Assembly: GCA_963846585.1 (NCBI GenBank) | Contig: CAWJWO010000013.1 | Location: 107,801 to 171,800, forward strand | Length of the DNA stretch: 64,000 nt | From: an uncultured Bacteroidota bacterium | GTDB lineage: Bacteria; Bacteroidota; Bacteroidia; Bacteroidales; JAAUTT01 | Reading direction: 5' to 3' | Shown: in pieces, positions 3-61,299 of the stretch | Position numbering within the stretch: position 1 is the stretch's first letter | Layout: every line of letters begins with the position of its first letter | Notes under the pieces: generated by a model | Told to the model about the DNA's origin: nothing | Seen by the model: only the letters and a program-made list of their open reading frames with translations | The model's database searches: none | Position numbers and translations under genes: made by a program

Positions 3-2240
3 GAACGAATGGGCCTGATAATAAAAGATAATGATTTAGATCTGGTAAGTAAGATCGCGGAACGTGAAAGATCTCCCATGTATATTATTGGTGAAATAAC
101 CGGCGATAACCAGTTTACATTCCTTGACAGAACTAATAATACTAAACCTATCGATCTTAAAATTGAAGATTTACTTGGGAATCCGCCAAAAGTGAATATT
201 AACGATAATTCTTCAGTTCCGGTTTTTGGAGAAATTACCTGTTTTGAAGAAAGGTTGGCCGAATATATTGAACAGGTTCTTCAACTGGAAGGGGTTGCAT
301 GTAAAGATTGGCTGACAAATAAAGTCGATCGGTCAGTTACAGGACATGTTGCATTGCAGCAAACTACAGGTGAAATTCAACTGCCGCTGAACAATCTTGG
401 TATTGTAACATTAGACTATACAGGGTACAGGGGAGTAGCAAATGCTATAGGACATGCTCCGGCAGCTGCTATTATAAATCCGGCAGCCGGTTCAATACTT
501 GCTATTGCGGAAGCTCTTACAAACATTATTTGGGCTCCCTTACAGGGTCATATTAAAGGGGTTTCTTTAAGTGCCAATTGGATGTGGCCCTGTAAAAATC
601 CTGGTGAGGATTCACGGCTTTACACTGCCGTAAAAGCAGCAAGTGATTTCGCAGTTGAATTAGAAATAAATATTCCCACCGGTAAGGATTCTCTTTCCAT
701 GACTCAGCAATATCCGGATGGAAAGGTAGTTATAGCTCCCGGAACTGTTATCATATCTTCTGCAGCAGAAGTAACTGACATTCGCAAATCAGTAACTCCG
801 GCAATTAAGCAGGAAATGAATTCGGAAATTCTATATATAGATCTTTCACAATCTCCTTATAGTTTGGGGGGTAGCAGTTTTTCCCAGATAATCAATTTAT
901 TGGGAAATTCTACCCCAACAGTTAATGATCCTCAATATTTTAAAAGAGCGTTTAACGCTGTTCAATTACTTATAGAAGAAGATAAAATTATAGCGGGACA
1001 TGATATTTCTGCAGGTGGTATGATAACTGCTTTATTGGAAATGACTTTTACTTCAAATACTCTTGGGTTAAATATTGATTTATCGGAAATAACAGAAAAT
1101 GATATTATAAAAGTACTATTTAGCGAAAATCCGGGTTTAATTTTGCAGGTAAATGATCCCGTTGGCGTAACTAACTTTCTTGATAAATATAAAATTAAAA
1201 GTATCGCTATAGGTAAAGTTACTGATAAACGCCTGCTTAAGTTAAGGAAAGGCAGTAATGATTGGACGTTCCAATTGGATAAACTGAGGGATATTTGGTT
1301 CAAAACATCCTGGTTATTTGATAGTTTACAATGCAGCAACAACTTAGCATCAGAGCGGTTCAATAATTATAAAAATCAACCTCTTTATTACAGTTTTAAG
1401 GAACATTTTACCGGTACTTATGATTCTTTAGCGTTAAATCCAAATCGCCGGTCCCCGTCAGGTATAAAAGCGGCAATAATAAGAGAAAAAGGTGTTAACG
1501 GCGACAGAGAAATGGCATATGCCATGTACCTGGCCGGAATGGATGTGAAAGATGTACATATGACTGATCTTATTGCAGGACGTGAAACACTTGAAGAAAT
1601 TCAAATGATCGTTTTTGTCGGCGGATTCTCTAATTCAGATGTGTTGGGTTCAGCAAAAGGCTGGGCAGGGGCATTTCTTTTTAATGAAAAAGCTAAATAT
1701 ACACTTGATAATTTTTATAAACGGAACGATACACTAAGCCTTGGTGTTTGTAATGGTTGCCAGTTAATGATTGAGCTTGGGCTGGTAACGCCTGAACATA
1801 AACAAAAGCCTGTGATGTCAGTAAATGATTCACATAAGTTAGAATCGGCTTTTATAAATGTTAATATACCCGAAAATAATTCAGTTATGTTAAGTTCACT
1901 ATCCGGAAGCAGGCTTGGGATTTGGGTAGCTAATGGTGAAGGAAAATTCAATTTTCCATATAATGAAAATAAATACCATGTAGCAATGAAATACAGCTAT
2001 GAACAATATCCGGGAAATCCTAACGGATCTGATTATTCAATTGCGGGCATTTGTTCAGAGGATGGGCGGCACCTTGCTATAATGCCACATTTGGAACGAT
2101 CTGTTTTTCCATGGAATTGGGCATATTATCCGCAAAATATGAAATTTCAACAGGTAACACCATGGATAGAACCGTTCGTTAATGCTATGAAGTGGATGAA
2201 AAATAGAACCAAGAACCAAGAACCAGGAACCAAGACATGA
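3..2240 (+). CDS. purL: Phosphoribosylformylglycinamidine synthase (large fused PurL), 5'-truncated by window edge
   Basis: KDWLTNKVDRSVTG, LSANWMW, GKDSLSM, HDISAGG motifs; C-terminal glutaminase domain with GGFSNSDVLG, GVCNGCQ and MPHLER. Last residues (RTKNQEPGTKT) are encoded by a heptamer array. Confidence 0.97.
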   Translation, partial: ERMGLIIKDNDLDLVSKIAERERSPMYIIGEITGDNQFTFLDRTNNTKPIDLKIEDLLGNPPKVNINDNSSVPVFGEITCFEERLAEYIEQVLQLEGVACKDWLTNKVDRSVTGHVALQQTTGEIQLPLNNLGIVTLDYTGYRGVANAIGHAPAAAIINPAAGSILAIAEALTNIIWAPLQGHIKGVSLSANWMWPCKNPGEDSRLYTAVKAASDFAVELEINIPTGKDSLSMTQQYPDGKVVIAPGTVIISSAAEVTDIRKSVTPAIKQEMNSEILYIDLSQSPYSLGGSSFSQIINLLGNSTPTVNDPQYFKRAFNAVQLLIEEDKIIAGHDISAGGMITALLEMTFTSNTLGLNIDLSEITENDIIKVLFSENPGLILQVNDPVGVTNFLDKYKIKSIAIGKVTDKRLLKLRKGSNDWTFQLDKLRDIWFKTSWLFDSLQCSNNLASERFNNYKNQPLYYSFKEHFTGTYDSLALNPNRRSPSGIKAAIIREKGVNGDREMAYAMYLAGMDVKDVHMTDLIAGRETLEEIQMIVFVGGFSNSDVLGSAKGWAGAFLFNEKAKYTLDNFYKRNDTLSLGVCNGCQLMIELGLVTPEHKQKPVMSVNDSHKLESAFINVNIPENNSVMLSSLSGSRLGIWVANGEGKFNFPYNENKYHVAMKYSYEQYPGNPNGSDYSIAGICSEDGRHLAIMPHLERSVFPWNWAYYPQNMKFQQVTPWIEPFVNAMKWMKNRTKNQEPGTKT

Positions 2241-2578
2241 AACAGAAGACAGAAGACTTAAGGCAGAGGACAGAAGGCAGAGGACAGAAGGCAGAGGTCA
2301 GAAGACAGAGGTCAGAAGACAGAAAAAGATGAAAGATTAAAGATGAAAGAAGGCAGATAAAAGAGGACGTGAAAGGACGTGAAAGGACGTGAAAGGACGT
2401 GAAGACTTGGAACATAAAAATTTGAAAATGTGCAAATTTGAAAATGAAGATAATGTGTGCAATTTGCAACCTGCAACCTGTAACCTGCAACCTGCAACAA
2501 GTAACATGCGACCAGTAACAAGTAACCTGCAACCTGCAACAAGTTACTTACGACTTACGACTTACGACTTACGACTTA
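2206..2578. repeat. Composite short-tandem-repeat spacer (AACCARG, AGARGNC, AAAGGACGTG, TTTGAAAA-like, AACCTGC, ACTTACG blocks)
   Basis: Read directly: AACCA(A/G)G x4 at 2207-2234, AGAAGAC-like units 2244-2325, 10-mer AAAGGACGTG about x4 at 2362-2402, AACCTGC-like units 2468-2545, ACTTACG x4 at 2546-2573. Confidence 0.95.
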
Positions 2579-5154
2579 GAACTTTTTCTTTTCTTCTGAT
2601 TACTTTTTCTATAGCTATTTTATCCTGCAAACATCCTGATATTGGAAAGATAATTGATATCCCGATGGATAATTCATGGTATTTTCACAAAACATCAGAT
2701 ACTAATTGGTTATCGGCTGTGGTTCCAGGAAATGTCATATCAGATTTAATACAAAATAAAGTCATTAATGATCCATATTTCAGAATGAATGAAAAAGAGG
2801 TGCAATGGATAGAAAATGAGGATTGGGAATATCTCAAAACATTTGATATTTCTGAGGAAGCAATAAACCAGGATGTAACAGAATTATTATTTGAGGGCCT
2901 TGATACTTATGCAGATGTTTTTTTGAACGATTCGCTTATTTTAAGAGCCGATAATATGTTCCGGATATGGAAAGTTGATTGTAAAAAAATTTTGAAACCT
3001 AAATCGAACAGGTTAAAGATTTATTTTCATTCTCCCGTAAAAGAAGGAATGTCCAAAAGGGAAAAATTGTTATATAAGCCCGTTATTGAAGACGAACAAG
3101 CACCGGAGGAAGAACAAACATCTGTTTTTACACGAAAAGCATCTTATCAGTATGGATGGGATGGCGGGCCAAGGTTAATTACTTCAGGAATATGGCGGCA
3201 TATTCACTTATTGGCCTGGTCAGGGGCCAAAATTGAGAATATTTATTTCAAGCCAATACAAGTATCGTCTAAACTGGCAATTTATAATACAGAGGTAAAT
3301 ATCAGTTCAGTAAATGAACAGCATATGCGACTGGAGTTGATTGTTAATAACAGAAACGCTATAGCGGCTACAGATATAACCCTAAAAAAGGGAATGAATT
3401 CCAAATCATTGTCTTTTACTATAAACGATCCAAAATTGTGGTGGCCTAATGGTCTGGGAAAACCAACCTTATACGATTTAACAGTTAAGTTGACAAAGGA
3501 CCTCGAATTGATTGATATTAAAGAAGAAAAGCTTGGAATCCGTAAAGTTGAATTAATAACACAACCTGATTCGTCCGGTACAAGTTTTTATTTCAAGGTT
3601 AATGATTTTCCCGTATTTATGAAAGGTGCATGTTATGTGCCTGAAGACATATTAATAAACAAACGGTCTGCTGAAAAAATCATAAATCTTGTATCTTCTG
3701 CCCAGGCTGCCAATATGAATATGATAAGGGTTTGGGGAGGTGGAATTTATGAAGATCAGAAGTTTTATAATATTTGTGATGAGAAGGGTATACTGGTATG
3801 GCAGGATTTTATGTTTGCATCATCTTTACAGCCTGACGATAGCGCCCATAATGAAAATATCCGCCAGGAAGCCATAGACAATGTTACAAGGTTACGCAAT
3901 CATCCCTGCCTGGCATTATGGTGTGGCAATAGTGAAATACAGGAGAACTGGACCGAATTGGACTGGAAAAATAATTACCCCGGAAAGGTTTCTGATAACC
4001 TCCGGAATAATTACGACTCGGTTTTTAACAATATGTTACCGGGAATTATAAGGAGTTTAGATTCCAAAACGCCATACATATCAACTTCCCCGTCGGGGAC
4101 ATACGATAAAAATACAAAGACCTTTTCAGGAGATCAGCATGATTGGAGTGTATGGTACAACGGAGCATCCATTGAAGATTATGATTCATACATAGGCCGT
4201 TTTGTAAGTGAATTTGGAATGCAATCGTTTCCATCATTGGCTTCATTGGCACAATTTACAATTCCTTCTGATTTAGGTTTACATTCAGAGGTTATTAAAT
4301 TAAGACAATATAATACCTTGACATTGGATTCTAATGAAATAAGTGGTAATGATTTGATATATAAATATGTCACTCAATACTACAAAGAAACAGGCAATTT
4401 TGAAACCATGTGCTATTTAAGTCAGGTAATGCAATCAGAGGCACTCAGAAATGCTATAGAAAGCCACCGGCGGGCTAAACCACATTGCATGGGTTCCTTG
4501 TACTGGCAATTGAACGATTGCTGGCCTGCTATATCATGGTCAACTATTGATTATTATGGCAACTGGAAATTAAGCCATTATACAGTGTGTGATGCGTTTG
4601 CACCAATTATAGCAGTAACGGTACAAGACGGTAAAAATATTAATATTTACGGAATCAGCGATATACTTAAACCTACCGATGCGATTTTACTGGCAAAACT
4701 CATTAATTTTAACGGAAAAATATTGTTTGTGAAACAAATTCCGGTTAAAATTGAAGCTAACAGTTCAAAAATTTTACTCTCAATCCCTGAAGAAGAAATG
4801 TTGAAAAACCTTGATAAAAGAACATGTTGCCTTGTAGTGCAGTTTAATCAACCCAATAGTACCCTTGCTCAAAATATACTATATTTTACAAAGCCCGGCG
4901 AATTAACCCTGCAAAAAGCAACCATTGATATTAGCCTGAATGAAGCGGTAAGCGGATATAACCTTGTACTGAAATCTGCAGTACTGGTAAAAAATGTAGG
5001 GCTGGAAACCCGTCTGAAAAAATGCTGGTTTGCTGATAATAATTTTGATTTGCTGCCGGGTAAACGAACCAAGATAAATGTACATTATCAAGGTACCAGG
5101 GAAGAGTTTTTAAAAGATCTTAATATAGAATCATTGAATAATGCTTTATATTAA
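2506..5154 (+). CDS. GH2 beta-mannosidase, probable lipoprotein
   Basis: FEGLDTYA, RKASYQYGWDGGP, NMIRVWGGGIYE, VWQDFMFA, LWCGNSE, SEFGMQS, GSLYWQLNDCWP motifs. Lipobox-like AILSC after a hydrophobic stretch. Start chosen at in-frame ATG 2506 (ORF track begins at 2389). Confidence 0.9.
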   Translation: MRPVTSNLQPATSYLRLTTYDLRLRTFSFLLITFSIAILSCKHPDIGKIIDIPMDNSWYFHKTSDTNWLSAVVPGNVISDLIQNKVINDPYFRMNEKEVQWIENEDWEYLKTFDISEEAINQDVTELLFEGLDTYADVFLNDSLILRADNMFRIWKVDCKKILKPKSNRLKIYFHSPVKEGMSKREKLLYKPVIEDEQAPEEEQTSVFTRKASYQYGWDGGPRLITSGIWRHIHLLAWSGAKIENIYFKPIQVSSKLAIYNTEVNISSVNEQHMRLELIVNNRNAIAATDITLKKGMNSKSLSFTINDPKLWWPNGLGKPTLYDLTVKLTKDLELIDIKEEKLGIRKVELITQPDSSGTSFYFKVNDFPVFMKGACYVPEDILINKRSAEKIINLVSSAQAANMNMIRVWGGGIYEDQKFYNICDEKGILVWQDFMFASSLQPDDSAHNENIRQEAIDNVTRLRNHPCLALWCGNSEIQENWTELDWKNNYPGKVSDNLRNNYDSVFNNMLPGIIRSLDSKTPYISTSPSGTYDKNTKTFSGDQHDWSVWYNGASIEDYDSYIGRFVSEFGMQSFPSLASLAQFTIPSDLGLHSEVIKLRQYNTLTLDSNEISGNDLIYKYVTQYYKETGNFETMCYLSQVMQSEALRNAIESHRRAKPHCMGSLYWQLNDCWPAISWSTIDYYGNWKLSHYTVCDAFAPIIAVTVQDGKNINIYGISDILKPTDAILLAKLINFNGKILFVKQIPVKIEANSSKILLSIPEEEMLKNLDKRTCCLVVQFNQPNSTLAQNILYFTKPGELTLQKATIDISLNEAVSGYNLVLKSAVLVKNVGLETRLKKCWFADNNFDLLPGKRTKINVHYQGTREEFLKDLNIESLNNALY

Positions 5155-8053: not shown

Positions 8054-8079
8054 TAAATAAGTTAATTATCTGACAACTA

Positions 8080-8107
8080 AGCACTATGCACTGTGCACTA
8101 CGCACTA
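8080..8107. repeat. (N)GCACTA heptamer array x4 next to the dnaE stop
   Basis: agcacta tgcactg tgcacta cgcacta. Confidence 0.85.
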
Positions 8108-8110
8108 TTA

Positions 8111-11053
8111 TCATTCCGCCCTCGGATCAGCCTGATACGGCAGGCGGGCCATCTTGCTTATTTCAATACTTGGGAAACCAAATTCTTCTACAACCTTTCC
8201 TTCGAGCAGGTAAACCCCATACCCCGTAAACGGATATTTTTTCAATGAAACAGGGAAGTGCACAGTATCGAAAAACTCACCGTTAACATCGAGAAAACAA
8301 CCGAAATGCATTATCTCTTTTTTGATAGTCCACACATATTTGATGGTCACCAGATCGCCTGTCATTCGCACAGTTTTTCCTACCAAAGAGTTAATATCCC
8401 TCGAAAGAGTGTTGCCCCGGTAACCCGCTTTCAGCATATCGAACCGTGACATGCTTACAGGGAACCCAAGCAAATCGACTTCATCGTAAGCATCTTCAAT
8501 TGCCTGGTTACTGAGGGGAGGGAGTGCAAAATCCTTTACCGGTTCTTCAAAAAGCCGTTTGGAGGCAGGTACAGGTTTATCTCCGGCAAGAATGAAATGG
8601 GCTTCCCACATAAGTTCCTTTTTGGTTTTTCCGGTAAAACGGAATGCTCCTGCACGGATAAGGATAAGCAGCTGTTCAATACTAACGGCAATACGCCTGG
8701 TAAAATCTGGAAGGCTTTTAAAATCGCCATTAGTATTACGCTCTGCAACGATGAGTTCCGACAGGCCGGATTCGAGGTTTTTGAGGTGGATAAAGCCCAG
8801 GTAAATATCCTCGCCCCGGATGTTAGTCTTTAAATTGCTCCGGTTTACACATGGCAGATTGATTTTTGCACCGTGCCGCCGTGCCTCGTTAACATAAACC
8901 CAGGTGTGATAAAACCCTCCGAAATTATTTATTACCGCTACATGAAACTCATTAGGGAAATACGTCTTAAGATAAAGGCTCTGGTAACTCTCTACAGCGT
9001 ATGATGCTGAATGCGACTTGCAAAATGAATAACCTGAAAAAGATGCAATTTGCCGCCACACCTCTCCGGCAAGGTCGTCACTATAGCCTCGTTCCCTGCA
9101 ATTTTTAAAAAAAGTATCGTGAATACGTTCAAGCTGATCCCTTGACCGGAATTTCCCCGACATGGCCCTGCGAAGGATATCGGCATCGGATAAATCCAGT
9201 CCCGCAAAATGGTGGCATACTTTAAGCACATCTTCCTGATATACCATTACGCCATATGTTTCTTTCAGTTGTTCTTCAAAAACAGGATGCAGGTATTTGA
9301 ACCCTTCCGGATGATGAAAGCGTTTTATGTATTCACGCATCATACCGGACTGGGCCACACCGGGACGAATAATGGAACTGGCAGCCACCAGTTTAAGATA
9401 ATCCTGGCAGCGAAGTTTTTTTAACAGTCCACGCATGGCAGGCGATTCGATATAAAAACAGCCAATAGCTTCGCCCTGGTATAAACGCCTGTTAACTTCC
9501 TTATCGTGTTTAAATGTATCTACCTGGTGAATATCTATTTTTACCCCTTTGTTTTCAAGGACAATTTCGGTACATTCCTTTATATGGCCAAGTCCACGCT
9601 GGCTTAGGACATCTAGTTTTTCGAAACCTATTTCTTCGGCGACGTACATATCCCATTGTGTGGTAGCAAAATTTTTTGGTGGCAGGTCAAGTGCCGTGTA
9701 ACAGGAAATGGGCAATTCCGAAATGAGAATCCCCCCGGCATGTATGCTGCGGTGATGAGGAAAATCTTTCAGTTGCTCGCGGTAACTTAATATTTTACTA
9801 ACTATATCATTTTGCAGGACAGGGGAGGATGGGTTGTCAACCAGGCTGTCAATTTCATTCTTAGGCAATCCGTATACTTTACCAAGTTCGCGAATTATTG
9901 ATTTACCGTGAAAGGTGTTGGTGGCGCCAAGTAGGGCAGTGTGTTTACGGCCGTAGCGTTTAAACATGTAATCGATAACCTGGTCACGGTGAGTCCATGA
10001 GTAATCGATATCGAAATCCGGCGGACTGGAACGTTGAGGGTTGATGAAACGTTCAAAATACAGGTCAAGTTCAATAGGGTCGATGTCGGTAATTTTCAGG
10101 CAATAGGCCACTATACTGTTTCCGCCGCTTCCGCGGCCAACATGATATATGCCCTGCGACATGGAATAGCGGATCATATCCCAGGTGATAAGGAAGTAAG
10201 ACGAAAAGCCAAGCTTGTCGATTACTTCCAGTTCGTGCCTGATACGGCGTCTGGCTTCGGTGTTTTTTTGGCCATAACGGTATACCATGCCTTCCATGGC
10301 AAGTTTTCCGAGCAACAGATGATCGTCGTACTTGCTGCTGGTAAAAACACGTTTGTTTTTAGGGGTTTTAAATTCGAAATCGAAACTACATTTGTCGGCT
10401 AGTTCTCCGGCGTTTTTTACAAGCTCTGGGTAGGCGGCATAAAGTTTTTTGACCCTGTCTGGTGAAAGCAGGCATTCTTCATGTCTGGCCATTTGGCTGC
10501 CGGTTAGTTTGCTCAATAAGGTGTTGTGATCCATTGCCCGTAAGTGTTTATGGAGCTCATAACCGGCTATGGATTCAAAAGTCACCGGTATTTGGGCAAT
10601 AAGTTTTCTGTGATGTCGTTGGTATTCAGCGGTATATATCTTATTAATTTCCCACGGCCGTACCCCGATATATTCATTTTCAAGAAGCAGCTCCAGGGAA
10701 CGGCTTCCAGGGGCATATAGTACGAATACGTTAGAAAATCCGGGGGCAACTGACGAAAACGGTTTTTGTTCAAGGTTGTGACAGGATAGGAAATCGTTTA
10801 TCTCGCTGAATCCATCGAGGTTTTTTGCTATGCAGGTATAGAGATAATAATCGTTTATACGGCATTCCACCCCGGCCACCGGCTTAATATTTTTTTCACG
10901 GCAAAGTTTTACCATGTCGAAACAACCGCTTGTATTATTAATATCGGCAATCACCAGCGCGGGGATGGCAAGTTTCGCGGCATTTTCGACCAGTGTACCG
11001 ACCGGCATGGTACCGTATAGGAGGCTGTAATATGTGTGGCAGGTGTATAGCAT
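8111..11053 (-). CDS. dnaE: DNA polymerase III alpha subunit, short error-prone (DnaE2-like) paralog
   Basis: PHP domain (HTYYSLLYG), GRGSGGNS, FERFINP, catalytic PDFDID, HAGG, YSFCKSH, OB fold; 980 aa with no tau-binding tail; downstream of dinB. Confidence 0.93.
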   Translation of the reverse strand: MLYTCHTYYSLLYGTMPVGTLVENAAKLAIPALVIADINNTSGCFDMVKLCREKNIKPVAGVECRINDYYLYTCIAKNLDGFSEINDFLSCHNLEQKPFSSVAPGFSNVFVLYAPGSRSLELLLENEYIGVRPWEINKIYTAEYQRHHRKLIAQIPVTFESIAGYELHKHLRAMDHNTLLSKLTGSQMARHEECLLSPDRVKKLYAAYPELVKNAGELADKCSFDFEFKTPKNKRVFTSSKYDDHLLLGKLAMEGMVYRYGQKNTEARRRIRHELEVIDKLGFSSYFLITWDMIRYSMSQGIYHVGRGSGGNSIVAYCLKITDIDPIELDLYFERFINPQRSSPPDFDIDYSWTHRDQVIDYMFKRYGRKHTALLGATNTFHGKSIIRELGKVYGLPKNEIDSLVDNPSSPVLQNDIVSKILSYREQLKDFPHHRSIHAGGILISELPISCYTALDLPPKNFATTQWDMYVAEEIGFEKLDVLSQRGLGHIKECTEIVLENKGVKIDIHQVDTFKHDKEVNRRLYQGEAIGCFYIESPAMRGLLKKLRCQDYLKLVAASSIIRPGVAQSGMMREYIKRFHHPEGFKYLHPVFEEQLKETYGVMVYQEDVLKVCHHFAGLDLSDADILRRAMSGKFRSRDQLERIHDTFFKNCRERGYSDDLAGEVWRQIASFSGYSFCKSHSASYAVESYQSLYLKTYFPNEFHVAVINNFGGFYHTWVYVNEARRHGAKINLPCVNRSNLKTNIRGEDIYLGFIHLKNLESGLSELIVAERNTNGDFKSLPDFTRRIAVSIEQLLILIRAGAFRFTGKTKKELMWEAHFILAGDKPVPASKRLFEEPVKDFALPPLSNQAIEDAYDEVDLLGFPVSMSRFDMLKAGYRGNTLSRDINSLVGKTVRMTGDLVTIKYVWTIKKEIMHFGCFLDVNGEFFDTVHFPVSLKKYPFTGYGVYLLEGKVVEEFGFPSIEISKMARLPYQADPRAE

Positions 11054-11229
11054 AGTCGTAAGTCGTAAGTCGTAAGTGACCAGGGGCTAGGGGCTAGGGG
11101 TCAGTGATGAAGTGATTAAGTAATTTGTAATCAGTAATTAGTAATTAGTAATCAGTAATTTGTCATTTGCACATCTGCACATTATTTTTCACGTCTCATG
11201 TTCCCTAGCCCCTAGTCCCTAGCCACTAA
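11054..11229. repeat. Composite repeat spacer between dinB and dnaE
   Basis: AGTCGTA x3 (11054-11074) touching the dnaE start codon; TAGGGGC units at 11082-11100 with inverted GCCCCTA-like units at 11203-11227; TAAT(C/T)AG units 11128-11160. Confidence 0.92.
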
Positions 11230-12384
11230 TGGTCTTATATTTACGGCCCGTTCAATGGAATCTTTGCCATATCGTTTTCGGATACGGTCAAGCGAAAGAT
11301 AAAGATTTACCATTTCAGGGGTATCTTCGAACAGGTTGAGTTGCTGGGTACCGTGTACGAGGTGAGAAAAGCGTACGCCTATCATACGAATGAGCATCCG
11401 GCGGTTATAAAGTTTTTTAAACAGTTCTTTTACTATGTTTAATAGAGTATGGTCAAACGATGAGTAGGGGATACGTTTTTGCATAGTGTATGTATCGAAA
11501 TTCGAATACCTTATTTTTACTGTCACGCAGCAGGTAAGTTTTTGCTGGGAGCGCAGTTCAAAGCAAAGTTTTTCGGTCATTCCTGTAAGTAAGTCGTTTA
11601 GAAAAGTTATATCGGTAGTATCGTTCTCAAATGTACGTTCTGTGCTGATAGATTTTTGTTCCCAATACGGCTGTACTATGTTATGGTCGATACCATTCGC
11701 ACGTTTCCATATTTCGATGCCATTTTTCCCCATTATCCTTTCCATCATCTCAGGCGGCATTTGACGTAAGGTGGCAATTGTATCTATACCCAAAGCCCGC
11801 AGCATGGCAAAGGTTTTATCCCCAATCATAGGTATTTTACGGATCGACAGAGGTGCCAGGAAAGGTGGTACCTGTTCGCTGTTGATGTACAGTTCGCCGT
11901 TTGGTTTAGCCTCACCGGTGGCAATTTTCGATACGGTTTTATTGATAGATAAGCCGAAAGATATTGGCAGCCCGGTCTCCTTTATAATACTATGCCTCAA
12001 CTCGTGTGCCCATTTCTGACACCCAAAAAAGCGGTCCATCCCTGTTATGTCAAGGTAATGTTCATCTATAGAAGCCTTTTCATATACAGGTGCTTTTTCG
12101 GCAATAATGTCGGTTACCAGGTTGGAATATTTGCTGTAGGTTTCCATGTCTCCACGTATGATGATAGCATCAGGACAGAGCAGGCGTGCCATTTTCATGG
12201 GCATGGCCGAACGCACGCCAAATTTCCGGCATTCGTAGCTGCAACTGGCTACAACACCCCGGTCGGAAGTTCCCCCGATGATTACCGGTTTACCTTTCAG
12301 ATCGTTGTGCATTAACCGTTCCACCGATACGAAAAAGGTGTCGAGGTCGAAGTGTACGATATTTCGGGTGGTTGTATCTATCAT
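11212..12384 (-). CDS. dinB: DNA polymerase IV (Y family)
   Basis: HFDLDTFFVSVE, RGVVASCSYE, GVRSAMP, SIDEHYLD, KIATGEAKPNG; QLNLF clamp-binding motif. Confidence 0.96.
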   Translation of the reverse strand: MIDTTTRNIVHFDLDTFFVSVERLMHNDLKGKPVIIGGTSDRGVVASCSYECRKFGVRSAMPMKMARLLCPDAIIIRGDMETYSKYSNLVTDIIAEKAPVYEKASIDEHYLDITGMDRFFGCQKWAHELRHSIIKETGLPISFGLSINKTVSKIATGEAKPNGELYINSEQVPPFLAPLSIRKIPMIGDKTFAMLRALGIDTIATLRQMPPEMMERIMGKNGIEIWKRANGIDHNIVQPYWEQKSISTERTFENDTTDITFLNDLLTGMTEKLCFELRSQQKLTCCVTVKIRYSNFDTYTMQKRIPYSSFDHTLLNIVKELFKKLYNRRMLIRMIGVRFSHLVHGTQQLNLFEDTPEMVNLYLSLDRIRKRYGKDSIERAVNIRPLVARD

Positions 12385-12690
12385 TAGTGCTTGGTGCTTA
12401 GTGCATAGTGCAAAGTGTTTTGTGTTGCAGGATTTTATGATTGTAATATGATCAAAAACTATGTTGATAATGTAATCATTTTTTATTATATTTGTACCGG
12501 AGTATTCAAAATTTTATGTTTTTTCAAACACTAATTACTGATTACTGATTACTGATTACTAATAACAAATTAAGTTTATGAGGTTTATAATGTTTATAAA
12601 GTTTATAGGATTATGTTATTGAGAATTTATATTTATAAGAATTTTATAAACTTTATAAACTTTATAAACAAAATTTACTAGCCACTAACC
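12385..12690. repeat. Repeat blocks in the dinB/lexA-like divergent spacer
   Basis: TAGTGC(A/T)-like x4 at 12385-12412, TTACTGA-like x4 at about 12535-12562, GTTTATAAA-like 9-mers at 12574-12607 facing ATAAACTTT 9-mers at 12643-12669. Confidence 0.85.
12487..12494 (+). promoter_or_regulatory. Bacteroidota sigma-A -7 element, candidate promoter of the LexA-like gene
   Basis: TATATTTG matches TAnnTTTG; a TGAT-N6-ATCA palindrome (12465-12478) lies just upstream. Confidence 0.5.
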
Positions 12691-12699: not shown

Positions 12700-13527
12700 A
12701 TGGCAATATTTTTCGCATCAAACATAAAATTGTTGAGGAAGAGAAAGGGCCGTACCCAGGACGATATATCTGCTGCCCTTGATATAAAACGTCCTACACT
12801 GAGTGGTTATGAAAATAGCGGCGTGTTTCCCGGCGTGGAAGCCTTAATGTGCCTTTCGGATTATTTCAGGGTTTCAATAGACACACTTGTGAGAGTTGAC
12901 CTGGCTAAGCTGTCGGAGTTTCAGCTTTCGGAGTTGGAACGGGGGAATGATATATATATACGGGGAACAAATATAAGGATATTGGCTACTACTGTAAACC
13001 GTAACGAGGAAGAAAATATAGAACTGGTTCCTGAAAAGGCTAAAGCCGGTTATGCAACTGGATATTCCGATCCTGATTTTATTAGTGAACTGCCCAGGTT
13101 TTATTTACCTTTTTTATCGCACAACAAGAAGTTCAGGACCTTTCAGATTTCAGGCGATTCGATGTTACCTGTTCCCGATGGCTCATGGATTACTGCCGAA
13201 TTTGTTCAGGACTGGCATACAATTATCAGCGGCAAACCTTATGTTATACTTACCCTGGGAGATGGGGTTGTGTTTAAGATAGCCGATAACCTTATACAGG
13301 ACGAAGGCAAGCTGCGGTTATATTCCTTAAACTCATTCTATAAGCCTTACGATGTGTTTGTTGCTGATATAAAAGAGGTTTGGAGGTTTGTGCATTTTAT
13401 AAGCAGCGAAATTCCTGAAACAGACACCTCAGGCGATGATCTGGCACGTAAGGTATTTGAACTGAGCAGGGAAATTGACGGGATAAAGAAGAGGATGGAA
13501 GATGACGTGGGACGTGAAAGGACGTGA
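12700..13527 (+). CDS. LexA/CI-like self-cleaving repressor (XRE HTH + S24 peptidase)
   Basis: N-terminal HTH (NIKLLRKRKGRTQ..LSGYEN), Ala-Gly cleavage site in AKAGY, catalytic Ser in GDSM and Lys in VVFK; divergent from dinB-dnaE. Confidence 0.88.
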   Translation: MAIFFASNIKLLRKRKGRTQDDISAALDIKRPTLSGYENSGVFPGVEALMCLSDYFRVSIDTLVRVDLAKLSEFQLSELERGNDIYIRGTNIRILATTVNRNEEENIELVPEKAKAGYATGYSDPDFISELPRFYLPFLSHNKKFRTFQISGDSMLPVPDGSWITAEFVQDWHTIISGKPYVILTLGDGVVFKIADNLIQDEGKLRLYSLNSFYKPYDVFVADIKEVWRFVHFISSEIPETDTSGDDLARKVFELSREIDGIKKRMEDDVGRERT

Positions 13528-13561
13528 AAGGACGTGAAAGGACTTGAAAATGGGACGTGAG
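13504..13561. repeat. GACGTG-based 7/10-mer array overlapping the repressor stop codon
   Basis: gacgtgg gacgtgaaag gacgtgaaag gacgtgaaag gacttgaaaa tgggacgtgag. Confidence 0.88.
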
Positions 13562-37797: not shown

Positions 37798-37817
37798 TCT
37801 AATAATTATAAAATGGA

Positions 37818-39702: not shown

Positions 39703-39823
39703 GAATATTATTATATCAATAATTAATTTGCCTATGGAGTTGACATAGATTTTTAATATTATTGCATCTGAATTCTGGTAATATACTAACAGGCTAAAGC
39801 CTAAAGCCTAAATACCTTTAAAA

Positions 39824-41716: not shown

Positions 41717-41717
41717 C

Positions 41718-41922: not shown

Positions 41923-41934
41923 AATAATTAATAA

Positions 41935-45973: not shown

Positions 45974-46158
45974 AGTCGTAAGTCGTAAGTCGTAAGTCGT
46001 AAGTCGTAAGAAATTTATTTAAATATTCGCAAGTAGTGAGTTGAATTTAAAGCTCAGGTGAAATTGATGAACAAATAAAATGCGATATTTGTGACCAACA
46101 ACCAACAACCAACAACTAAAAACCAACAACTAACAACTAACAACTAAAAACCAGTAAC
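45974..46158. repeat. AGTCGTA x5 (left) and AACAAC(C/T)-like x9 (right)
   Basis: 45974-46008 and about 46094-46158, flanking a short unique core. Confidence 0.9.
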
Positions 46159-47482: not shown

Positions 47483-48418
47483 ATGAAAAAACTGAATCTG
47501 TTATTGTTAGTTGGTGGCTTTATTTTTTTAATGCTTAAGGTTTCGGCTCAGCAGTGGGATGTACCTGCAGATAAAAAAGACAAAAATAGCCCTTTCCGGT
47601 TTACGGCTGAAACTTCAGTTAAGGGAGAATCGGTTTTTAAACAAAATTGCCAGGTTTGTCATGGTGAACCTACAAAAGGGACATATAATAAAGGTCTTAT
47701 TCCCGTTCCGGGTGATCCTGCGACGGATAAATTCCAGAAACAAACAGACGGGGCATTATTTTATAAAATTACAACCGGTCGTGGGGCCATGCCACAGTTC
47801 AGGGACATCTTAACGGAAGAACAGCGCTGGCAGGCAATATCGTATTTCAGAAGTTTTAATAAAAGCTATGTACAACCTGAAAATGAATTAAAAGAGGGAT
47901 CATCTGTTGAAGTGCAAAATGTATTTCTTTCCCTTACGTTTATTCCTGTTAATAATCAGGTTAAAGCGTTAGCAACTGATAAATATAATAAACCGGTAAG
48001 GGGAGCAGAAGTCGGATTATTTGTAAAACGCTATTTTGGCAAAATGAAAATTGGAGAGTCGGTTAATACTGATTCGGAAGGTATAGCAGTATTTGATTTT
48101 CCTAAAGATTTGCCGGGAGATAAAAAGGGGAACGTTATTATTATCGCCGATATTAACATCGGAGGTACTGATATACAAAAAATTGATACTTTTTCTATAG
48201 GAATCCCTACAAATAAACCTCCTTTAACAAGTGGACATGCAATGTGGAATGTAATGTCAAAAGCACCTGTTTGGCTATTACTCAGCTATTTTATTGTAGT
48301 AGCTGTAATTTGGGGATTTATTATTTTTATTGTAATGCAATTGGTTAAGCTTAGAAAAAGAGGACAGATGACAGAGGACAGAGAACAGAAGACAGAAGAG
48401 GTGAGACGTGAGACATAG
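47483..48418 (+). CDS. Membrane-anchored monoheme cytochrome c
   Basis: Signal peptide, CQVCH, distal Met in GAMP, Ig-like middle domain, C-terminal TM helix; tail encoded by repeats. Confidence 0.88.
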   Translation: MKKLNLLLLVGGFIFLMLKVSAQQWDVPADKKDKNSPFRFTAETSVKGESVFKQNCQVCHGEPTKGTYNKGLIPVPGDPATDKFQKQTDGALFYKITTGRGAMPQFRDILTEEQRWQAISYFRSFNKSYVQPENELKEGSSVEVQNVFLSLTFIPVNNQVKALATDKYNKPVRGAEVGLFVKRYFGKMKIGESVNTDSEGIAVFDFPKDLPGDKKGNVIIIADINIGGTDIQKIDTFSIGIPTNKPPLTSGHAMWNVMSKAPVWLLLSYFIVVAVIWGFIIFIVMQLVKLRKRGQMTEDREQKTEEVRRET

Positions 48419-48530
48419 GACGTGAATACATGCAACATGCAACCTGCAACACATATACAAATAAACGTATAAATCTTATAAACCTTATAAACCTTATAAA
48501 CGCATAAACATATAAACTCATAAACCTTTA
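48360..48530. repeat. Composite array overlapping the cytochrome c 3' end
   Basis: AGAGGAC/AGAAGAC-like x6, GTGAGAC x2, AACATGC/AACCTGC, ATAAAC-based 8/9-mers. Confidence 0.9.
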
Positions 48531-48578
48531 ACAATAAGTATTCCAAATACAATAATATCAATAAAGTTAGATACTGCT

Positions 48579-49361
48579 ATGAAATTAAATAAGTTGATTA
48601 TACTATTATTATTTATGGCAAAGGTTTCCTTTGCTCAGCAACCTGTCAGTACAACAGTGACTGAAGGAGAAGTTGGAATAATTGAGCATCTTGACAGTAT
48701 AATCCCTCTCGATCTGAAGTTCAAAAATGAGAAGGAAGAAATAGTTTCGTTAAGGAGCCTGATAAATAAACCTACAGTATTATCTTTTGTATATTTTGAC
48801 TGTCCAAGTTTGTGTAACAGGCTACTTGAAGGGTTATCGCATGTGATTGAAAATTCTGATCTTAATCTGGGAAAGGATTACCAGGTTATTACATTGAGTT
48901 TTAATTATTTTGATACACCAGAAATGGCAAAACAGAAAAAGGAAACTTTTATGCTAAGGAAAACCAGGGACCATTCAGCAAGCTGGATTTTTCTTACAGG
49001 CGATAGCACAAGTATATACAAACTTACCAATTCAGCAGGGTTTAAATTTAAAAGGGCCGGATTAAACTTTATTCATCCGGCAGCCATTATCATGTTAACT
49101 GGGTCCGGTAAAATTACCCGATATCTCTATGGTATATCATTTTTGCCATTTGATCTGAAAATGGCTGTGGCAGAAGCCGAAAAGGGATTGTCAAGGCCTA
49201 CTATAAGCCGGGTACTGGATTTTTGTTTTGCATATGATCCGGAAGGGAAAAGATATGCCCTCGATATTACCAAAATTTCAGGGGTACTTATTGTTTTTTT
49301 CCTGTTATTATTTGTTATAATTTTATTAATAAGAAAAAGGACGAAAAATTTGAAAATTTAA
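48579..49361 (+). CDS. SCO1/SenC copper chaperone
   Basis: YFDCPSLC (CxxxC), FIHPAA, ITRYLYG, FCFAYDP. Confidence 0.92.
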   Translation: MKLNKLIILLLFMAKVSFAQQPVSTTVTEGEVGIIEHLDSIIPLDLKFKNEKEEIVSLRSLINKPTVLSFVYFDCPSLCNRLLEGLSHVIENSDLNLGKDYQVITLSFNYFDTPEMAKQKKETFMLRKTRDHSASWIFLTGDSTSIYKLTNSAGFKFKRAGLNFIHPAAIIMLTGSGKITRYLYGISFLPFDLKMAVAEAEKGLSRPTISRVLDFCFAYDPEGKRYALDITKISGVLIVFFLLLFVIILLIRKRTKNLKI

Positions 49362-49409
49362 TAATGTGCAAATGATGACAAATTACTGATTACTAATTAC
49401 TGATTACTA

Positions 49410-51038
49410 ATGACTAATGACAAAGAGATAATGCCTGCACACCAAAATCCTGGTCAGCCCAGTTACCTTGAATATAAAGGTAAATACAAAGGAATTGCAG
49501 GATGGATTTTTTCCACCGATCATAAACGCATAGCTTTACTTTATCTGTATTCGATAATGACCTTCTTCCTGGTTGGTGCAACTCTTGGGGTATTAATGCG
49601 AACGGAACTTATTGCGCCCGGAGAAACAATTATGAAGGCACAGACATATAACGGGATGTTTACACTCCACGGCATAATTATGATATTTCTTGTAGTTATA
49701 CCTGGTTTATCAGTTACTTTCGGAAATTTTTTCCTGCCTATTATGATAGGTGCAAAAGATGTGGCTTTTCCCAGGCTTAATTTATTTTCATGGTGGGTTT
49801 ACATTTTGGGTGCAGCAATAGCAATTACTTCACAATTTATCGGAAATGGTCCTCCTGATACCGGCTGGACATTCTACGCGCCATATAGTACTCATACCCA
49901 TACCAATGTTATAGCTGCAGTTTTAGGTGCATTTGTACTTGGATTTTCCTCTATTCTTACCGGATTGAATTTTATAGTGACTATTCACCGGATGCGTGCT
50001 CCTGGTATGACCTGGTTCAGGATGCCATTGTTTCCCTGGTCGCTTTATGCTACTGCCTGGATACAGGTATTAGCCACGCCAATTGTAGGTATTACACTTT
50101 TAATGGTTATTGCGGAGCGTGTTTTTAAAATTGGATTTTTTGATCCGGCCCTGGGAGGTGACCCGGTGCTTTATCAGCATTTATTCTGGATTTATTCTCA
50201 TCCGGCAGTTTATATCATGATATTACCTGCTATGGGGGTTGTGACCGAAATTATCCCCACATTTACAAAACGAAAAATATTCGGATATAAGGCAATAGTA
50301 TTTTCCAGCCTTGCTATTGCCGGAGTTGGTTATTTGGTTTGGGGTCATCATATGTTTACTTCCGGAATTAGTATCACGGCACGCTGGATATTCTCCCTGC
50401 TAACATTCATTGTAGCAGTTCCGAGTGCAATAAAGGTATTTAACTGGATAACCACAATGTACAAAGGATCAATTGATTTGCAACCGCCGCTTTTATATGT
50501 TTTTACGTTTATTTTCCTGTTTCTCATAGGCGGTTTATCAGGTCTGGTGCAGGGAGCATTGGCTACCAACATCCAGGTTCATGATACTTCATTCGTGGTG
50601 GCCCATTTTCATTATATAATTTTTGGCGGGATGGGATTTGCCTTCTTTGCGGGTATTCATTATTGGTTTCCTAAAATATACGGGAAAATGTATAACATCA
50701 GGCTGGCCAATATTGCCTGGGTTATTTTGTTTGTTGGATTCAACGTTTTATATTTCCCATTATTTATAATTGGGCTTCAGGGTATGCCCCGCCGTTATTA
50801 TGATTATCTACCCCAATTTCATACCGGCCATTTCATTTCAACAATGGGGGCATATGTATTGTCGGTGGGACTAATTCTAATGATTTATAATTTTATTCGT
50901 TCGTCGCGAAAAGGTATAGTGGCTTCTGCAAATCCCTGGGGAAGTAAATCAATTGAATGGACGATTCCTTCTCCACCGCCTTTGGAAAATTTTGAAGTAA
51001 TACCGGTAATTTCCGAAGAACCCTATAACTATAAATAG
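49410..51038 (+). CDS. coxA: Heme-copper oxidase subunit I, A2 type
   Basis: STDHKRI, TLHG, FPRLN, GWTFYAP, YSHPAVY (A2 signature), WGHH, VAHFHY, GMPRRY. Alternative start at 49431. Confidence 0.96.
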   Translation: MTNDKEIMPAHQNPGQPSYLEYKGKYKGIAGWIFSTDHKRIALLYLYSIMTFFLVGATLGVLMRTELIAPGETIMKAQTYNGMFTLHGIIMIFLVVIPGLSVTFGNFFLPIMIGAKDVAFPRLNLFSWWVYILGAAIAITSQFIGNGPPDTGWTFYAPYSTHTHTNVIAAVLGAFVLGFSSILTGLNFIVTIHRMRAPGMTWFRMPLFPWSLYATAWIQVLATPIVGITLLMVIAERVFKIGFFDPALGGDPVLYQHLFWIYSHPAVYIMILPAMGVVTEIIPTFTKRKIFGYKAIVFSSLAIAGVGYLVWGHHMFTSGISITARWIFSLLTFIVAVPSAIKVFNWITTMYKGSIDLQPPLLYVFTFIFLFLIGGLSGLVQGALATNIQVHDTSFVVAHFHYIIFGGMGFAFFAGIHYWFPKIYGKMYNIRLANIAWVILFVGFNVLYFPLFIIGLQGMPRRYYDYLPQFHTGHFISTMGAYVLSVGLILMIYNFIRSSRKGIVASANPWGSKSIEWTIPSPPPLENFEVIPVISEEPYNYK

Positions 51039-51225
51039 TTGCTAGATGTTAGTTGTTAGTTGTTGGTTGCTGAATATAAGTAATGAGGTAAAAAAGGACG
51101 TGAGTCATGGGACGTGGGACGTGGGACGTGAAGACCTGCACCCTTCGACAGGCTCAGGGTACGATTAACTGCAACCTGCAACATATAAACATATAAACCA
51201 TATAAACTTTATAAACGCATAAACA
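51036..51225. repeat. Composite array between coxA and coxC with embedded REP-like motif
   Basis: TAGTTGT-like units, GACGTGG units, CCCTTCGACAGGCTCAGGG (51141-51159), AACCTGC, ATAAAC 8/9-mers. Confidence 0.9.
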
Positions 51226-51849: not shown

Positions 51850-52197
<348 letters not shown>

Positions 52198-52201
52198 ATA
52201 T

Positions 52202-52488: not shown

Positions 52489-52723
52489 AGTCGTAAGTCG
52501 TAAGTCGTAAGTCGTAAGACAGAAGGCAGAAGGTAAAAGGCAGAGGGCAGAAGGCAGAAGACAGAAGGCTTGATATGTGATTCTAGATTTTAGATTCTAG
52601 ATTTGAGATTTAAAATTTGGATATTCTGTAAGTACAAATCTTAAATATAGATTCTCAATTCTAAAATCTTAAATGATTTGTCCAATTTCTTGTCTTGGTT
52701 CCTGGCTCTTGACTCTTGGTTCC
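52489..52723. repeat. Composite array between coxD and coxB containing an inverted copy of 27351-27494
   Basis: AGTCGTA x4, AGAAGGC-like units, then 52562-52705 equal to the reverse complement of 27351-27494 (137/144). Confidence 0.95.
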
Positions 52724-52752
52724 TTTAATATTATTAATTACTGATAAACACT

Positions 52753-56968: not shown

Positions 56969-57116
56969 ATATTGAAAAATTAAGTTGCAGGTTACAGGTT
57001 GCAGGTTATTAAATACAACCTTTCCAACTTTAAAACCTATACAACTAATACAGCATTTCAATTGAACCAATAATCAATTTTTTGGTTAATTAAGTAAAAG
57101 TGAAAATCTATAAAGT

Positions 57117-57476
57117 ATGGACCAATATGAATCGAACAGAAGAAAATTTATCCGCAGCCTGGGGTTATCAGTCGGAGCTGTAATGACTGTTAATTCGGTT
57201 ATCAAGGCAGGTGTAAGTGATAATAAAGAAAAGTTTGAGATTACTCCTGAGCAGGAAGAATTTATTATAAAATACGAAAAATGGATGGATGATTTTATTG
57301 ATGTTATCCGTGTGCAGAAAATATCTCCAAATAACCTTGATAATAATAAAAAACTTATAAGACTTACCGAAATAGCTAAAGAATGGCAACAAAGGCTTAC
57401 AGAGTTTATGAAGGATGAAAATTTTGCCAGATATTATATTGTAGTAACTGAAAGAATGACTCAGGAAATAGAATGA
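57117..57476 (+). CDS. Small hypothetical protein with twin-arginine signal
   Basis: SNRRKFIRSLG followed by a hydrophobic stretch. Confidence 0.7.
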   Translation: MDQYESNRRKFIRSLGLSVGAVMTVNSVIKAGVSDNKEKFEITPEQEEFIIKYEKWMDDFIDVIRVQKISPNNLDNNKKLIRLTEIAKEWQQRLTEFMKDENFARYYIVVTERMTQEIE

Positions 57477-57666
57477 TAGTGCATAGTGCATAGTGCATAG
57501 TGCTTAGTTCCTCTATACAAATCACCAGACATAAGCAAAAAAAATAATTGTTGGTTGTTGTTAAATTATTGATACTACAAATTTCAATTTGGAAGACAAC
57601 CTTTACAAATTTTTATGTGTCTGAAATTCTATGCACTATGCACTATGCACTAAGCACTATGCACTT
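57477..57666. repeat. Inverted pair of TAGTGCA / TGCACTA arrays
   Basis: TAGTGC(A/T) x4 begins immediately after the stop (57477-57504); (T/A)GCACTA-like x5 at 57632-57666. Confidence 0.92.
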
Positions 57667-57772
57667 TTGAGACAAATTGCAGGACTGAAGAAAATATTGA
57701 TTTAACAATTAATCATAAGCAGTAAGTATTATTATTTATCGCATATTTGCGTTTATGTATAATTACCGTATT

Positions 57773-60835: not shown

Positions 60836-60898
60836 TGAGACGTGAGACGTGGGACGTGGGACGTGAAAAGAGACGTGGGACGAGAAAAGGCAGAAGGT
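60836..60898. repeat. GACGTG(A/G) heptamer array after the GH3 stop
   Basis: gagacgt gagacgt gggacgt gggacgt gaaaa gagacgt gggacg. Confidence 0.85.
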
Positions 60899-61019
60899 AA
60901 TACAATGTTTAAAAATATCACTATCTGAATTAAATTTTTATGTAATCCCCAAACAACATTGAATTTATTGGAGATATTAAGTTTATTGCCTAATATTGTC
61001 ACTGTATAAAAACAATAAT

Positions 61020-61299
61020 CTAACAACTAACAACTAACAACTAACAACTAACAACTAACAACTAACAACTAACAACTAACAACTAACAACTAACAACTAA
61101 CAACTAACAACTAACAACTAAAAAACTAACAACTAACAACTAACAACTAACAACTAACAACTAACAACTAACAACTAACAACTAACAACTAACAACTAAC
61201 AACTAACAACTAACAACTAACAACTAACAACTAACAACTAACAACTAACAACTAACAACTAACAACTAACAACTAACAACTAACAACTAACAACTAACA
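61020..61299. repeat. Long TAACAAC tandem array (38 perfect units plus one 8-bp variant)
   Basis: 14 units 61021-61118, TAAAAAAC 61119-61126, 24 units 61127-61294. Confidence 0.97.

Follow-up and report, generated by a model that had tools for sequence, protein, structure and literature searches.

Facing arrays of short tandem units in the gene spacers of an uncultured Bacteroidota bacterium and their link to TIGR02436/PF05635 genes

The protein family PF05635 takes its name from open reading frames (ORFs) in 23S rRNA intervening sequences (IVS). PF05635 and TIGR02436 proteins are widespread, and we know of no role for them outside retroelements. Short tandem heptamers reportedly make up the STRR repeats of heterocystous cyanobacteria, and Elhai and co-workers are said to have described, in 2008, very small repeats dispersed through the spacers of Nostoc punctiforme. 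Here we analyze a 64,000-nt stretch (the window; G000:C13:107801-171800) of the 4.07-Mb, 20-contig assembly of an uncultured Bacteroidota bacterium (G000; G+C 32-37% per contig), in which about 20 spacers between genes contain arrays of tandem 7-10-nt units. Proteins encoded in the window match Bacteroidota families (T9SS PorE, the CHU_0125 OmpA family and GH92). An initial annotation of the window, made from its letters alone, had placed these arrays beside the cyanobacterial STRR; heptamers are indeed present in the spacers, but the genome belongs to another phylum, so the comparison is one of analogy and not of membership.

Three described systems come close to what we see. The IVS of Coxiella has a 28-bp terminal stem and three tandem GACAGAT units ahead of the S23p start, with copy-number differences between strains; RNase III cleaves at the first repeat, and the Xanthomonas homologue of the protein is a pentameric toroid (PMC4990558, from the accessible part of that report). 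The intergenic repeats GGGAATC of Xanthomonas and GGGGAYT of Nostoc form convergent pairs, one per strand, with 70 in Xanthomonas campestris pv. campestris (Xcc). Their G-rich strand begins near the 5' neighbouring ORF whatever its orientation, some overlap stop codons, and 16% lie in convergent and 7-8% in divergent spacers (Rehm et al. 2015, PMC4692102). Polarity is thus already on record for one heptamer family. Unlike the present case, that report, as far as its accessible text goes, describes one family per genome, reads the repeats as quadruplexes, mentions neither nesting nor a link to a gene or element, and states that the repeats are not tied to mobile elements (PMC4692102). TAACTGA repeats of Beggiatoaceae, Cyanobacteria and Bacteroidetes lie forward just upstream of start codons and in reverse past stop codons; with other heptamers they occur in five Bacteroidetes and close relatives lack them in the corresponding spacers (MacGregor 2015, PMC4679880). 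Again unlike here, the accessible part of that study deals with one unit, gives no polarity rule or hairpin element, and interprets the repeats as translational-regulator sites.

We called arrays with Tandem Repeats Finder and genes as crude ORFs (ATG start, at least 80 aa, greedy choice), so that spacer borders are approximate. For each unit family '>' denotes its majority inward strand lying on the top strand, and the arrays of a spacer were collapsed to a string of directions. In the window the program returned 128 rows and recovered, within a few bases, all 21 array sites of the initial annotation with every unit named there (AAGTCGT, AACCARG, AGAAGAC, GACGTGG, TAGTGCA, AGTTGTT, AGGTTGC, TAGGGGC, TAGATTT, TAATCAG, AATTTGAA, GTTTATAAA and AAAGGACGTG); the examples given of AAGTCGT on the left and ACGACTT on the right of a spacer are correct. 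Thirteen of the 21 array-bearing spacers read '><', none '<>', and eight carry a single direction. Nor are the arrays missing from read data, an outcome that the initial annotation had allowed for: Logan contigs from four metagenome runs of one study, which are possibly the source sample and hence not independent, cross array borders at 48236-48429, 48435-48657, 50912-51112 and 57404-57643 with 0 differences, being short, of low depth and covering the stretch in part. These contigs also show many joints between arrays of different spacers, the usual effect of repeats on assembly graphs, from which we draw no inference.

The observation is confirmed genome-wide and is far stronger there than the window lets one see. 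Arrays of at least three copies number 1814 at period 7, 92 at period 6 and 467 at period 8; crude genes cover 84% of the genome, and 93% of period-7 bases (59,807/64,379) lie outside them. Arrays of period 7-10 occur in 1154 of the 2569 spacers and occupy 14.4% of spacer bases. Strand was associated with side of the spacer across the 20 commonest families (Fisher p from 1e-4 to 1.9e-27), AACCTGC being the one exception (p 0.06). The half of the spacer in which an array lies accords with its orientation for 1717 of 2020 arrays, and for 96% in the outermost tenth; by orientation of the flanking genes the figure is 83-91% in ++, -- and +- spacers and lower, 66-74%, in -+ spacers. Divergent spacers also bear arrays less often (33.6% vs 44-52%). 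After collapsing, 537 spacers read '><' and 3 '<>', with 280 '>', 307 '<' and 27 complex strings. In a non-circular test, with orientation learned on 2.15 Mb of contigs and tested on 1.93 Mb, the held-out half gave 204 '><', 1 '<>' and 6 complex spacers, and 733 of its 857 arrays agreed with the learned orientation. Polarity regardless of the orientation of flanking genes, as initially described, thus holds genome-wide and in held-out contigs, and orientation is not random.

The shared vocabulary and the recurring layer order, two further parts of the initial description, also extend to the whole genome. Order learned on half of 500 multi-layer arms predicted the other half with 123 right and 26 wrong, against 0.50 +/- 0.042 (maximum 0.617 of 200 shuffles) when layers were shuffled within arms. 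Outer families are AGTGCTT, AAGTCGT, AGTGCAT, AGCCAGG and AACCAAG; inner ones are AAGATTT, AGATTTT, AAAGTTTAT and AGGTTGC. In three-layer arms G+C declines inward, from 0.42 in the outermost layer to 0.30 in the innermost, as does percent match, from 86.7 to 82.9. Two exceptions to polarity had been claimed in the window, of which the array at 33192 truly breaks the rule, whereas the TAATCAG family obeys it once orientation is learned genome-wide (weakly polarised, p 0.05). An inverted 9-mer is common to both arms in 36.5% of the 537 '><' spacers, compared with 13.8 +/- 1.4% in shuffled pairings, and a called family in 59 (27 expected). Most modules are not simple palindromes, and arm pairing is a clear excess found in a minority. 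Arms paired across host genes (n=264) showed no such excess (11.4% vs 11.7 +/- 1.9%), and the stretches between the innermost arrays of '><' spacers (median 35 bp) have no common central motif, the top 10-mer occurring in 15 of 537.

Viewed from the genes, 261 of 3223 crude genes have the flanks '< GENE >' and six the reverse, '> GENE <'; three of these six encode PF05635 proteins. The other three encode a SiaC-family protein, TrmD and an outer-membrane beta-barrel (G000:C2:395515, C15:411646, C17:50043). The assembly contains seven full TIGR02436 genes and one fragment (8 matches on C3, C7, C8, C15 and C18), and none lies on the window's contig at all, in keeping with the initial remark that the window has no four-helix-bundle gene. 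We assessed the flanks of the seven genes by eye plus script. By eye, six of them are each enclosed by facing arms of a single family, which differs from gene to gene: AGTGCTT; AAGAGCC/AACCAAG; AAAATTTG; AGGGRYT; AAGRCAG; and AAGTCGT. These arm families rank among the commonest in the genome. The seventh gene, at C18:594264, is without regular facing arms; within G000:C18:594264-604058, paired copies of the core element, flanks included, lie at 594694/596439 and 599644/603853, which suggests local segmental duplication. The same contig carries a 63-bp tandem repeat in 4 copies at C18:215682-215929. The TIGR02436 paralogues are 27-48% identical and hence old. Matches to the bAvd profile were weak, scoring 26.4 and 17.3 bits against a cut-off of 40, and the solved PF05635/TIGR02436 structures, 2gsc and 2rld, are pentameric, with 5 chains each. 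A tie between the arrays and TIGR02436-like genes, which the initial annotation had raised for other genomes, is therefore real in this genome, and it recurs at the loci of named genomes described below. Its corollary, that gene-less modules are sites emptied by gene loss, found no support: tblastn with the seven proteins, at E up to 1, returned the known genes and a few chance matches, with no gene remnant in any module.

The association extends to relatives. TIGR02436 is present in 26 of 31 related genomes, where 20 of 30 loci have at least three inverted 9-mers between the two 260-bp flanks and the arrays consist of genome-specific units. A scan of one genome per species gave 80 loci, mostly in named Bacteroidota (genera including Flavobacterium, Pedobacter, Mucilaginibacter, Chryseobacterium and Adhaeribacter, plus Saprospiraceae) and a few labelled as other phyla; the best relatives of the S23p-like genes of G000 are in Prolixibacteraceae and other Bacteroidota. 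Among the 77 loci of named genomes with enough flank, 49 reach at least three inverted seeds, against 6.1 on average (maximum 10) with flanks paired between loci, 16 in direct orientation and 3 of 70 for sequence 640-900 bp away. A left array is present at 46 loci, a right array at 53, and 31 loci have both; G exceeds C in 37 vs 11 left arrays, and C exceeds G in 45 vs 7 right arrays. Over 105 cassettes with 163 arm units, the inward strand contains AG in 129 and CT in 33. The share of cassette pairs with a common unit rises over five bins of protein identity, from 1.6% (<40%) through 3.2%, 8.4% and 27% to 57% (>75%). The gene flanked by AAGTCGT has the same pair of host neighbours in G000, G008 and G011; across the three, its protein is only 52-53% identical, against 68-78% for the host genes. 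Arrays of AAGTCGT occur in six of the 31 genomes, with 99 matches in G000 and 3-11 in G002, G005, G009, G011 and G013.

On balance, and with modest confidence, we favour the reading that the window spacers hold the gene-less form of a hairpin-element family, which we call IVS-like and regard as related to the S23p-bearing 23S rRNA intervening sequences. Such an element would consist of two facing arms of 7-10-nt tandem units, the inward-reading arm carrying the G-richer form of the unit, nearly always with AG, and the other arm its complement; a fuller form would enclose a TIGR02436/PF05635 (S23p, Avd-like) four-helix-bundle gene between the arms. Polarity would be built into the element (AG units in the 5' arm, the complement in the 3' arm) and inherited by all copies and, because the element is symmetric, it would look alike whichever way the neighbouring genes point. 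Nesting would represent stems within stems, and the shared vocabulary and layer order would stem from common descent and the copying of composite segments between spacers, with slippage altering copy number and point changes, for the most part towards A+T, altering the units. Once transcribed, matched arms may pair into stems of at least 30 bp and be cut by RNase III as in the 23S IVS; elements in operons would then be excised, or would separate cistrons harmlessly. The four-helix-bundle pentamer may recognise its own AG-phased repeats.

The resemblance to the S23p-bearing IVS of Coxiella and Leptospira lies in the PF05635 ORF in the loop of the gene-bearing form and in inverted repeats forming a stem of ~28 bp; Coxiella further has heptamers in the 5' arm, with GACAGAT close to the AAGACAG family of this genome, and the purine-rich arm 5' (PMC4990558, accessible part). 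Unlike the IVS, the elements here lie between protein-coding genes and not in helix 25 or 45 of 23S rRNA, and they comprise dozens of unit families, nested layers and >1000 gene-less copies, with RNase III cleavage suggested by analogy. All modules of the window lie between protein-coding ORFs, with no PF05635 ORF in the loop, a feature seen at six of the seven genes elsewhere; Rfam gave no family at its gathering score in the window, and no rRNA was found there. Predicted folds are consistent with stems where arms match: ~31 bp around the ORF of the cassette at C18:166295 (z -5.65), ~33 bp in the gene-less module at 57470-57670 (z -8.5), and stems within stems in the nested module at 27325-27595 (z -7.8), against a weak predicted fold for the module with unlike arms at 51850-52198 (z -2.3). 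The genome has an RNase III gene.

The arrays of the window are given below in order of position; the sister species used for comparison is G012, whose DnaE-like protein is 87% identical to that of G000.

2205-2584: module '><'; left AGAACCA, AAGACAG, AAAGATG and AGGACGTGAA, right TGCAACC and ACTTACG.
8076-8108: single arm '<' of ACTATGC, adjoining the stop codon of a minus-strand gene (8111-11053).
11054-11228: module; left AGTCGTA and AGGGGCT, right AGTAATT and CCCTAGC; touches a CAT start codon; the counterpart in the sister species is an 80-bp spacer without arrays.
12384-12669: module; a TAGTGCT array directly at the start codon, a conserved piece of ancestral spacer next to it, and after that ACTGATT, GTTTATAAG and TTTATAAAC.
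13510-13549: single arm '>' of GGACGTGAAA x4, at the 3' end of a gene.
27332-27591: nested symmetric module; outer AACCAAG-type arms, inner AGATTYT palindromic core; homologous, in reverse, to 52560-52752.
28304-28550: module; left AGTCGTA x11 and GTTTATAA x9, right CACGTCC and TCACCTCA.
33192-33229: the polarity exception; ATAGTGC x5 in the '>' form near the start of the right-hand gene, where the regular orientation would place ATG triplets in the leader.
35821-35903: module; left AAGATAA x3.6, right TAATCAG x7.6, ending 8 bases ahead of a start codon.
37648-37797: symmetric module; left AAGTCGT-type and AAGACAG, right ACTTACG.
39574-39812: module of AATTTGAA, AATTACT, GGTTTATAA and ACTTAATC; begins in a stop codon and retains ancestral promoter-like DNA at ~39750-39790, behind which comes a CTAAAGC array ahead of a start codon.
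41717-41934: symmetric module in a convergent spacer; facing AACCAGG/AGCCAGG arms and an outer inverted pair ccatccttcgacttagct / agctaagtcgaaggatgg; the repeat finder places the start at 41747.
45974-46153: module; AGTCGTA x5 past a stop codon, ACCAACA x8.6 ahead of the next start.
48359-48528: module; left AGAGGAC, AGACGTG and ACATGCA, right TATAAACCT; the spacer measures 310 bp vs 111 bp in the sister species.
49373-49418: array of AATTACT/TGATTAC, filling a 48-bp spacer.
51036-51225: module; left TAGTTGT (its first TAG being a stop codon) and GGACGTG, right CATATAAAC; ~18 bp in the sister species.
51850-52198: module with unlike arms; left AGTCGTA and AAGACAG x19 grading to AAGATAA, right TCTTTCT and ACAACTA x12.
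52489-52720: module; AGTCGTA, AAGGCAG, an AGATTYT palindromic core, then a cttggttcc-type right arm.
56984-57008: single arm of GTTACAG/GTTGCAG x3.6.
57476-57665: clean gene-less hairpin element directly past a stop codon; (TAGTGCA)4, 120 nt, (CTATGCA)5; the sister species has 32 bp at this site, and the ancestral spacer survives on the element's right side.
60836-61299: module; left GACGTGR, right CTAACAA x40, reaching to 6 bases ahead of a start codon.

Mechanically called ORFs run across arrays at 2185-2532 (115 aa, minus strand) and 2389-5154 (GTG start inside a module), so that arrays inflate or misplace gene calls. The hybrid histidine kinase gene at 33255-35807 is without two in-frame stretches (429 and 770 bp) present in G012 (window 33666-34273).

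Compared with G012, the modules are, by sequence, net insertions: orthologous spacers measure 190 vs ~18, 331 vs 56, 267 vs 69 and 244 vs 32 bp. In a 140-kb sample G012 has 2.9 period-7 arrays per 100 kb, against 44.5 in G000, and is without most of the G000 unit vocabulary. Arrays begin at the coding border (the TAG of the 51036 array is a stop codon, TGA runs into TAGTGCA at 57476, and CAT into TAGTGCT at 12384), and pieces of ancestral spacer persist further inside the modules. At 37645-37817 both species have arrays, of different families (ATAAACGA x8 and ATTATAC x7 in G012), a case of complete family turnover. Non-tandem DNA is shared as well: 300 of the 1154 array spacers have at least 40 non-tandem bases at at least 80% identity in common with another spacer, and a 96-nt AGATTYT palindromic core has 51 copies in the genome, nearly always innermost, some standing alone. 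The shared connectors and the 51-copy core show that segments are copied between spacers. The initial annotation had pictured an element inserting repeatedly at the center of existing modules. The position of the 96-nt core, innermost and also alone, agrees with this, but arrays abut stop and start codons with ancestral DNA inside, and inner layers are AT-richer and slightly more degenerate, which would suit the reverse order of layering. We also dropped the idea that the outer families are young, as suggested by their absence from 140 kb of G012; it no longer follows, given AAGTCGT arrays in five other genomes and arrays of other families in an orthologous spacer of G012.

Two palindromic AGATTYT/AAATCAC modules at G000:C17:298213-298310 and C19:167989-168086 have identical flanks and run into tRNA-like ggggggattagctcagctgg; a position inside rRNA operon spacers is possible, and would be of interest in view of the IVS link. 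Other dispersed non-tandem repeats include sequences with AAAATGCTCATTTAC (~42 copies), AACCCCAACCCCTTAA (~32) and CCTTCGACTACGCTCAGGGCAAG (~28), and the related ccttcgacaggctcaggg stands in the center of a window module at 51135-51160.

Several observations weigh against reading the modules as IVS-like hairpin elements. In 63% of '><' spacers the arms have no shared inverted 9-mer, few share a called family, modules with unlike arms fold weakly, and 587 spacers carry one array direction only. No transposase, target duplication or other sign of mobility was found. The gene-less modules contain no gene remnant, so that it is their architecture which suggests a putative descent from a gene-bearing form, and for AGTTGTT, with 181 arrays the most frequent family, the assembly has no gene-bearing copy. 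Some families are strongly biased to 3' flanks, which points to selection at the mRNA level too. Finally, in samples of 80-140 kb per related genome, few or no arrays were present in relatives with 3-5 TIGR02436 genes (0 per 80-100 kb in G007, G009 and G015); the gene is thus not sufficient for genome-wide spread.

REP/REPIN sequences with RAYT, and MITEs, are likewise small palindromic intergenic repeats in hundreds of copies, sometimes nested; unlike them, the arms here are tandem arrays. As to MITEs, inverted arms are present, the clean insertion at 57476-57665 shows no target duplication, and no transposase parent was found. The single Y1_Tnp (RAYT-like) gene (C2:316663-317007) was rejected as the RAYT of the arrays, being flanked by its own 46-nt GC-rich inverted hairpins and not by arrays. 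The hairpins are 91% complementary (G000:C2:316591-317192, L177:591-1192), and this is a REP-like system of its own; a search for the gene in the sister G012 and in G007, G014, G026 and G029 found none. A diversity-generating retroelement was rejected too, there being no reverse transcriptase of that type and no template/variable repeat pair; the TIGR02436 proteins share with Avd of such retroelements the four-helix-bundle fold family.

Of the alternatives to an IVS-like element, the one that survives best, improbable as we think it, is that the arrays are independent simple repeats kept as mRNA sites for translation or stability regulators (S1, Csp, CsrA-like), their polarity reflecting the needs of leaders and trailers and the four-helix-bundle genes merely tolerating the same surroundings. 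Arrays do lie directly against start codons, and certain families are specific to 3' flanks, the share at 5' flanks being 26% for AAGACAG, 14% for ACGTGGG and 4% for ACAGAGG. The ATG-bearing AGTGCAT is depleted at 5' flanks (29%, p 2e-5), and the exception at 33192 avoids upstream ATGs; the lower frequency of arrays in divergent spacers and the sparing of ancestral promoter-like DNA fit as well, and such a role is proposed for TAACTGA repeats in MacGregor's text (PMC4679880, accessible part). The major families AGTTGTT, AGTGCTT, AACCAAG, AACCAGG, AAGTCGT and AAGAGCC are, however, equally frequent at 5' and 3' flanks, always in the inward form, so that one unit would have to serve a leader in one sense and a trailer in the other. 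AACCAAG, moreover, puts the G/T-rich CTTGGTT with its TTG triplets into leaders, arms pair within spacers at 2.6 times chance, and the reversed pattern '> GENE <' is nearly confined to one gene family.

We consider it unlikely that ordinary replication slippage on local seeds made the arrays with no element involved, polarity then arising from spacer composition (A/C-rich leaders, T-rich trailers) and direct-repeat deletion. Slippage would explain why neighbouring families differ by 1-2 substitutions and grade in phase, as in the series AGTCGTA, AGTCATA, AGACAGA, AGACAAA, AGATAAA, AGATTAA at 51850-52005; complete family turnover in orthologous spacers agrees with it, and in the sister species leaders are A/C-rich and proto-arrays of few copies occur (such as gaataaac/gcataaac). 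It leaves unexplained why hundreds of unrelated spacers have units in common, AAGTCGT recurring even in six of 31 genomes, why non-tandem connectors and the 96-nt core are shared, and why '<>' is so rare beside '><', and its composition rule fails for the AACCAAG group.

Very unlikely, in our judgement, is templated addition, in which a telomerase-like or other reverse transcriptase would extend both 3' ends of a spacer break into inward G-rich arrays and later breaks would add the inner layers. Two extended 3' ends would give exactly '><', with the synthesised, G-richer strand inward, and Avd-like four-helix bundles are reverse transcriptase cofactors in diversity-generating retroelements. 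Breaks within arms should, however, often yield '><><', and complex strings make up just 27 of the 1154 array spacers; the non-tandem connectors have been copied along with the arrays. For the synthesising enzyme, also raised in the initial annotation, the genome offers no candidate, since its three reverse transcriptases are all of the group II intron type (RVT_1 with GIIM and/or RVT_N) and none lies at a module:

C1:12054-13511: reverse transcriptase gene, with maturase domain.
C2:259603-261000: reverse transcriptase gene, with maturase domain.
C8:82124-83221: reverse transcriptase gene, truncated, without maturase domain, 2.1 kb from a TIGR02436 gene.

The least credible account has the arrays maintained for the sake of non-B DNA or RNA structures, among them the G-quadruplexes suggested for GGGAATC: GGGAATC and GGGGAYT form quadruplexes in vitro and follow the same placement rule (PMC4692102, accessible part), but here runs of three or more G occur only in minor families, ACGTGGG (48 arrays) and AGGGGCT (19), and most families (AGTTGTT, AGTGCTT, AACCAAG, AAGTCGT, AAGATTT) are without one. 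We therefore rejected it as a general account; at most it would apply to the families with G runs.

A wider proposal builds on the IVS-like reading, and we advance it tentatively, as something we rather doubt. The cyanobacterial STRR, Xanthomonas GGGAATC, Beggiatoa TAACTGA and Bacteroidota arrays could all represent the arms of a single ancient class of selfish hairpins, whose full form would encode an S23p/Avd-like pentamer that reads the AG-phased 7-8-nt repeats on its own arms, co-diverges with them and helps to maintain or spread them; the 23S IVS would be a special case that landed in rRNA. In a literature search that took in few subscription journals and no supplementary tables (those of PMC4679880 and PMC4692102 may bear on the point), no paper was found that ties the protein family to genome-wide intergenic arrays.

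Arrays that lie over stop codons and against start codons mislead gene callers, which is of practical concern in such genomes. Turnover of spacer DNA becomes measurable here, given the share of spacer bases that arrays occupy and an orthologous spacer replaced between sister species. The genome also ties intergenic heptamer arrays, long reported without an origin, to the PF05635/TIGR02436 family, and it yields proposals that can be tested: that each paralogue and its repeat would form a cognate pair, and that operon transcripts would be processed by RNase III at matched arms.

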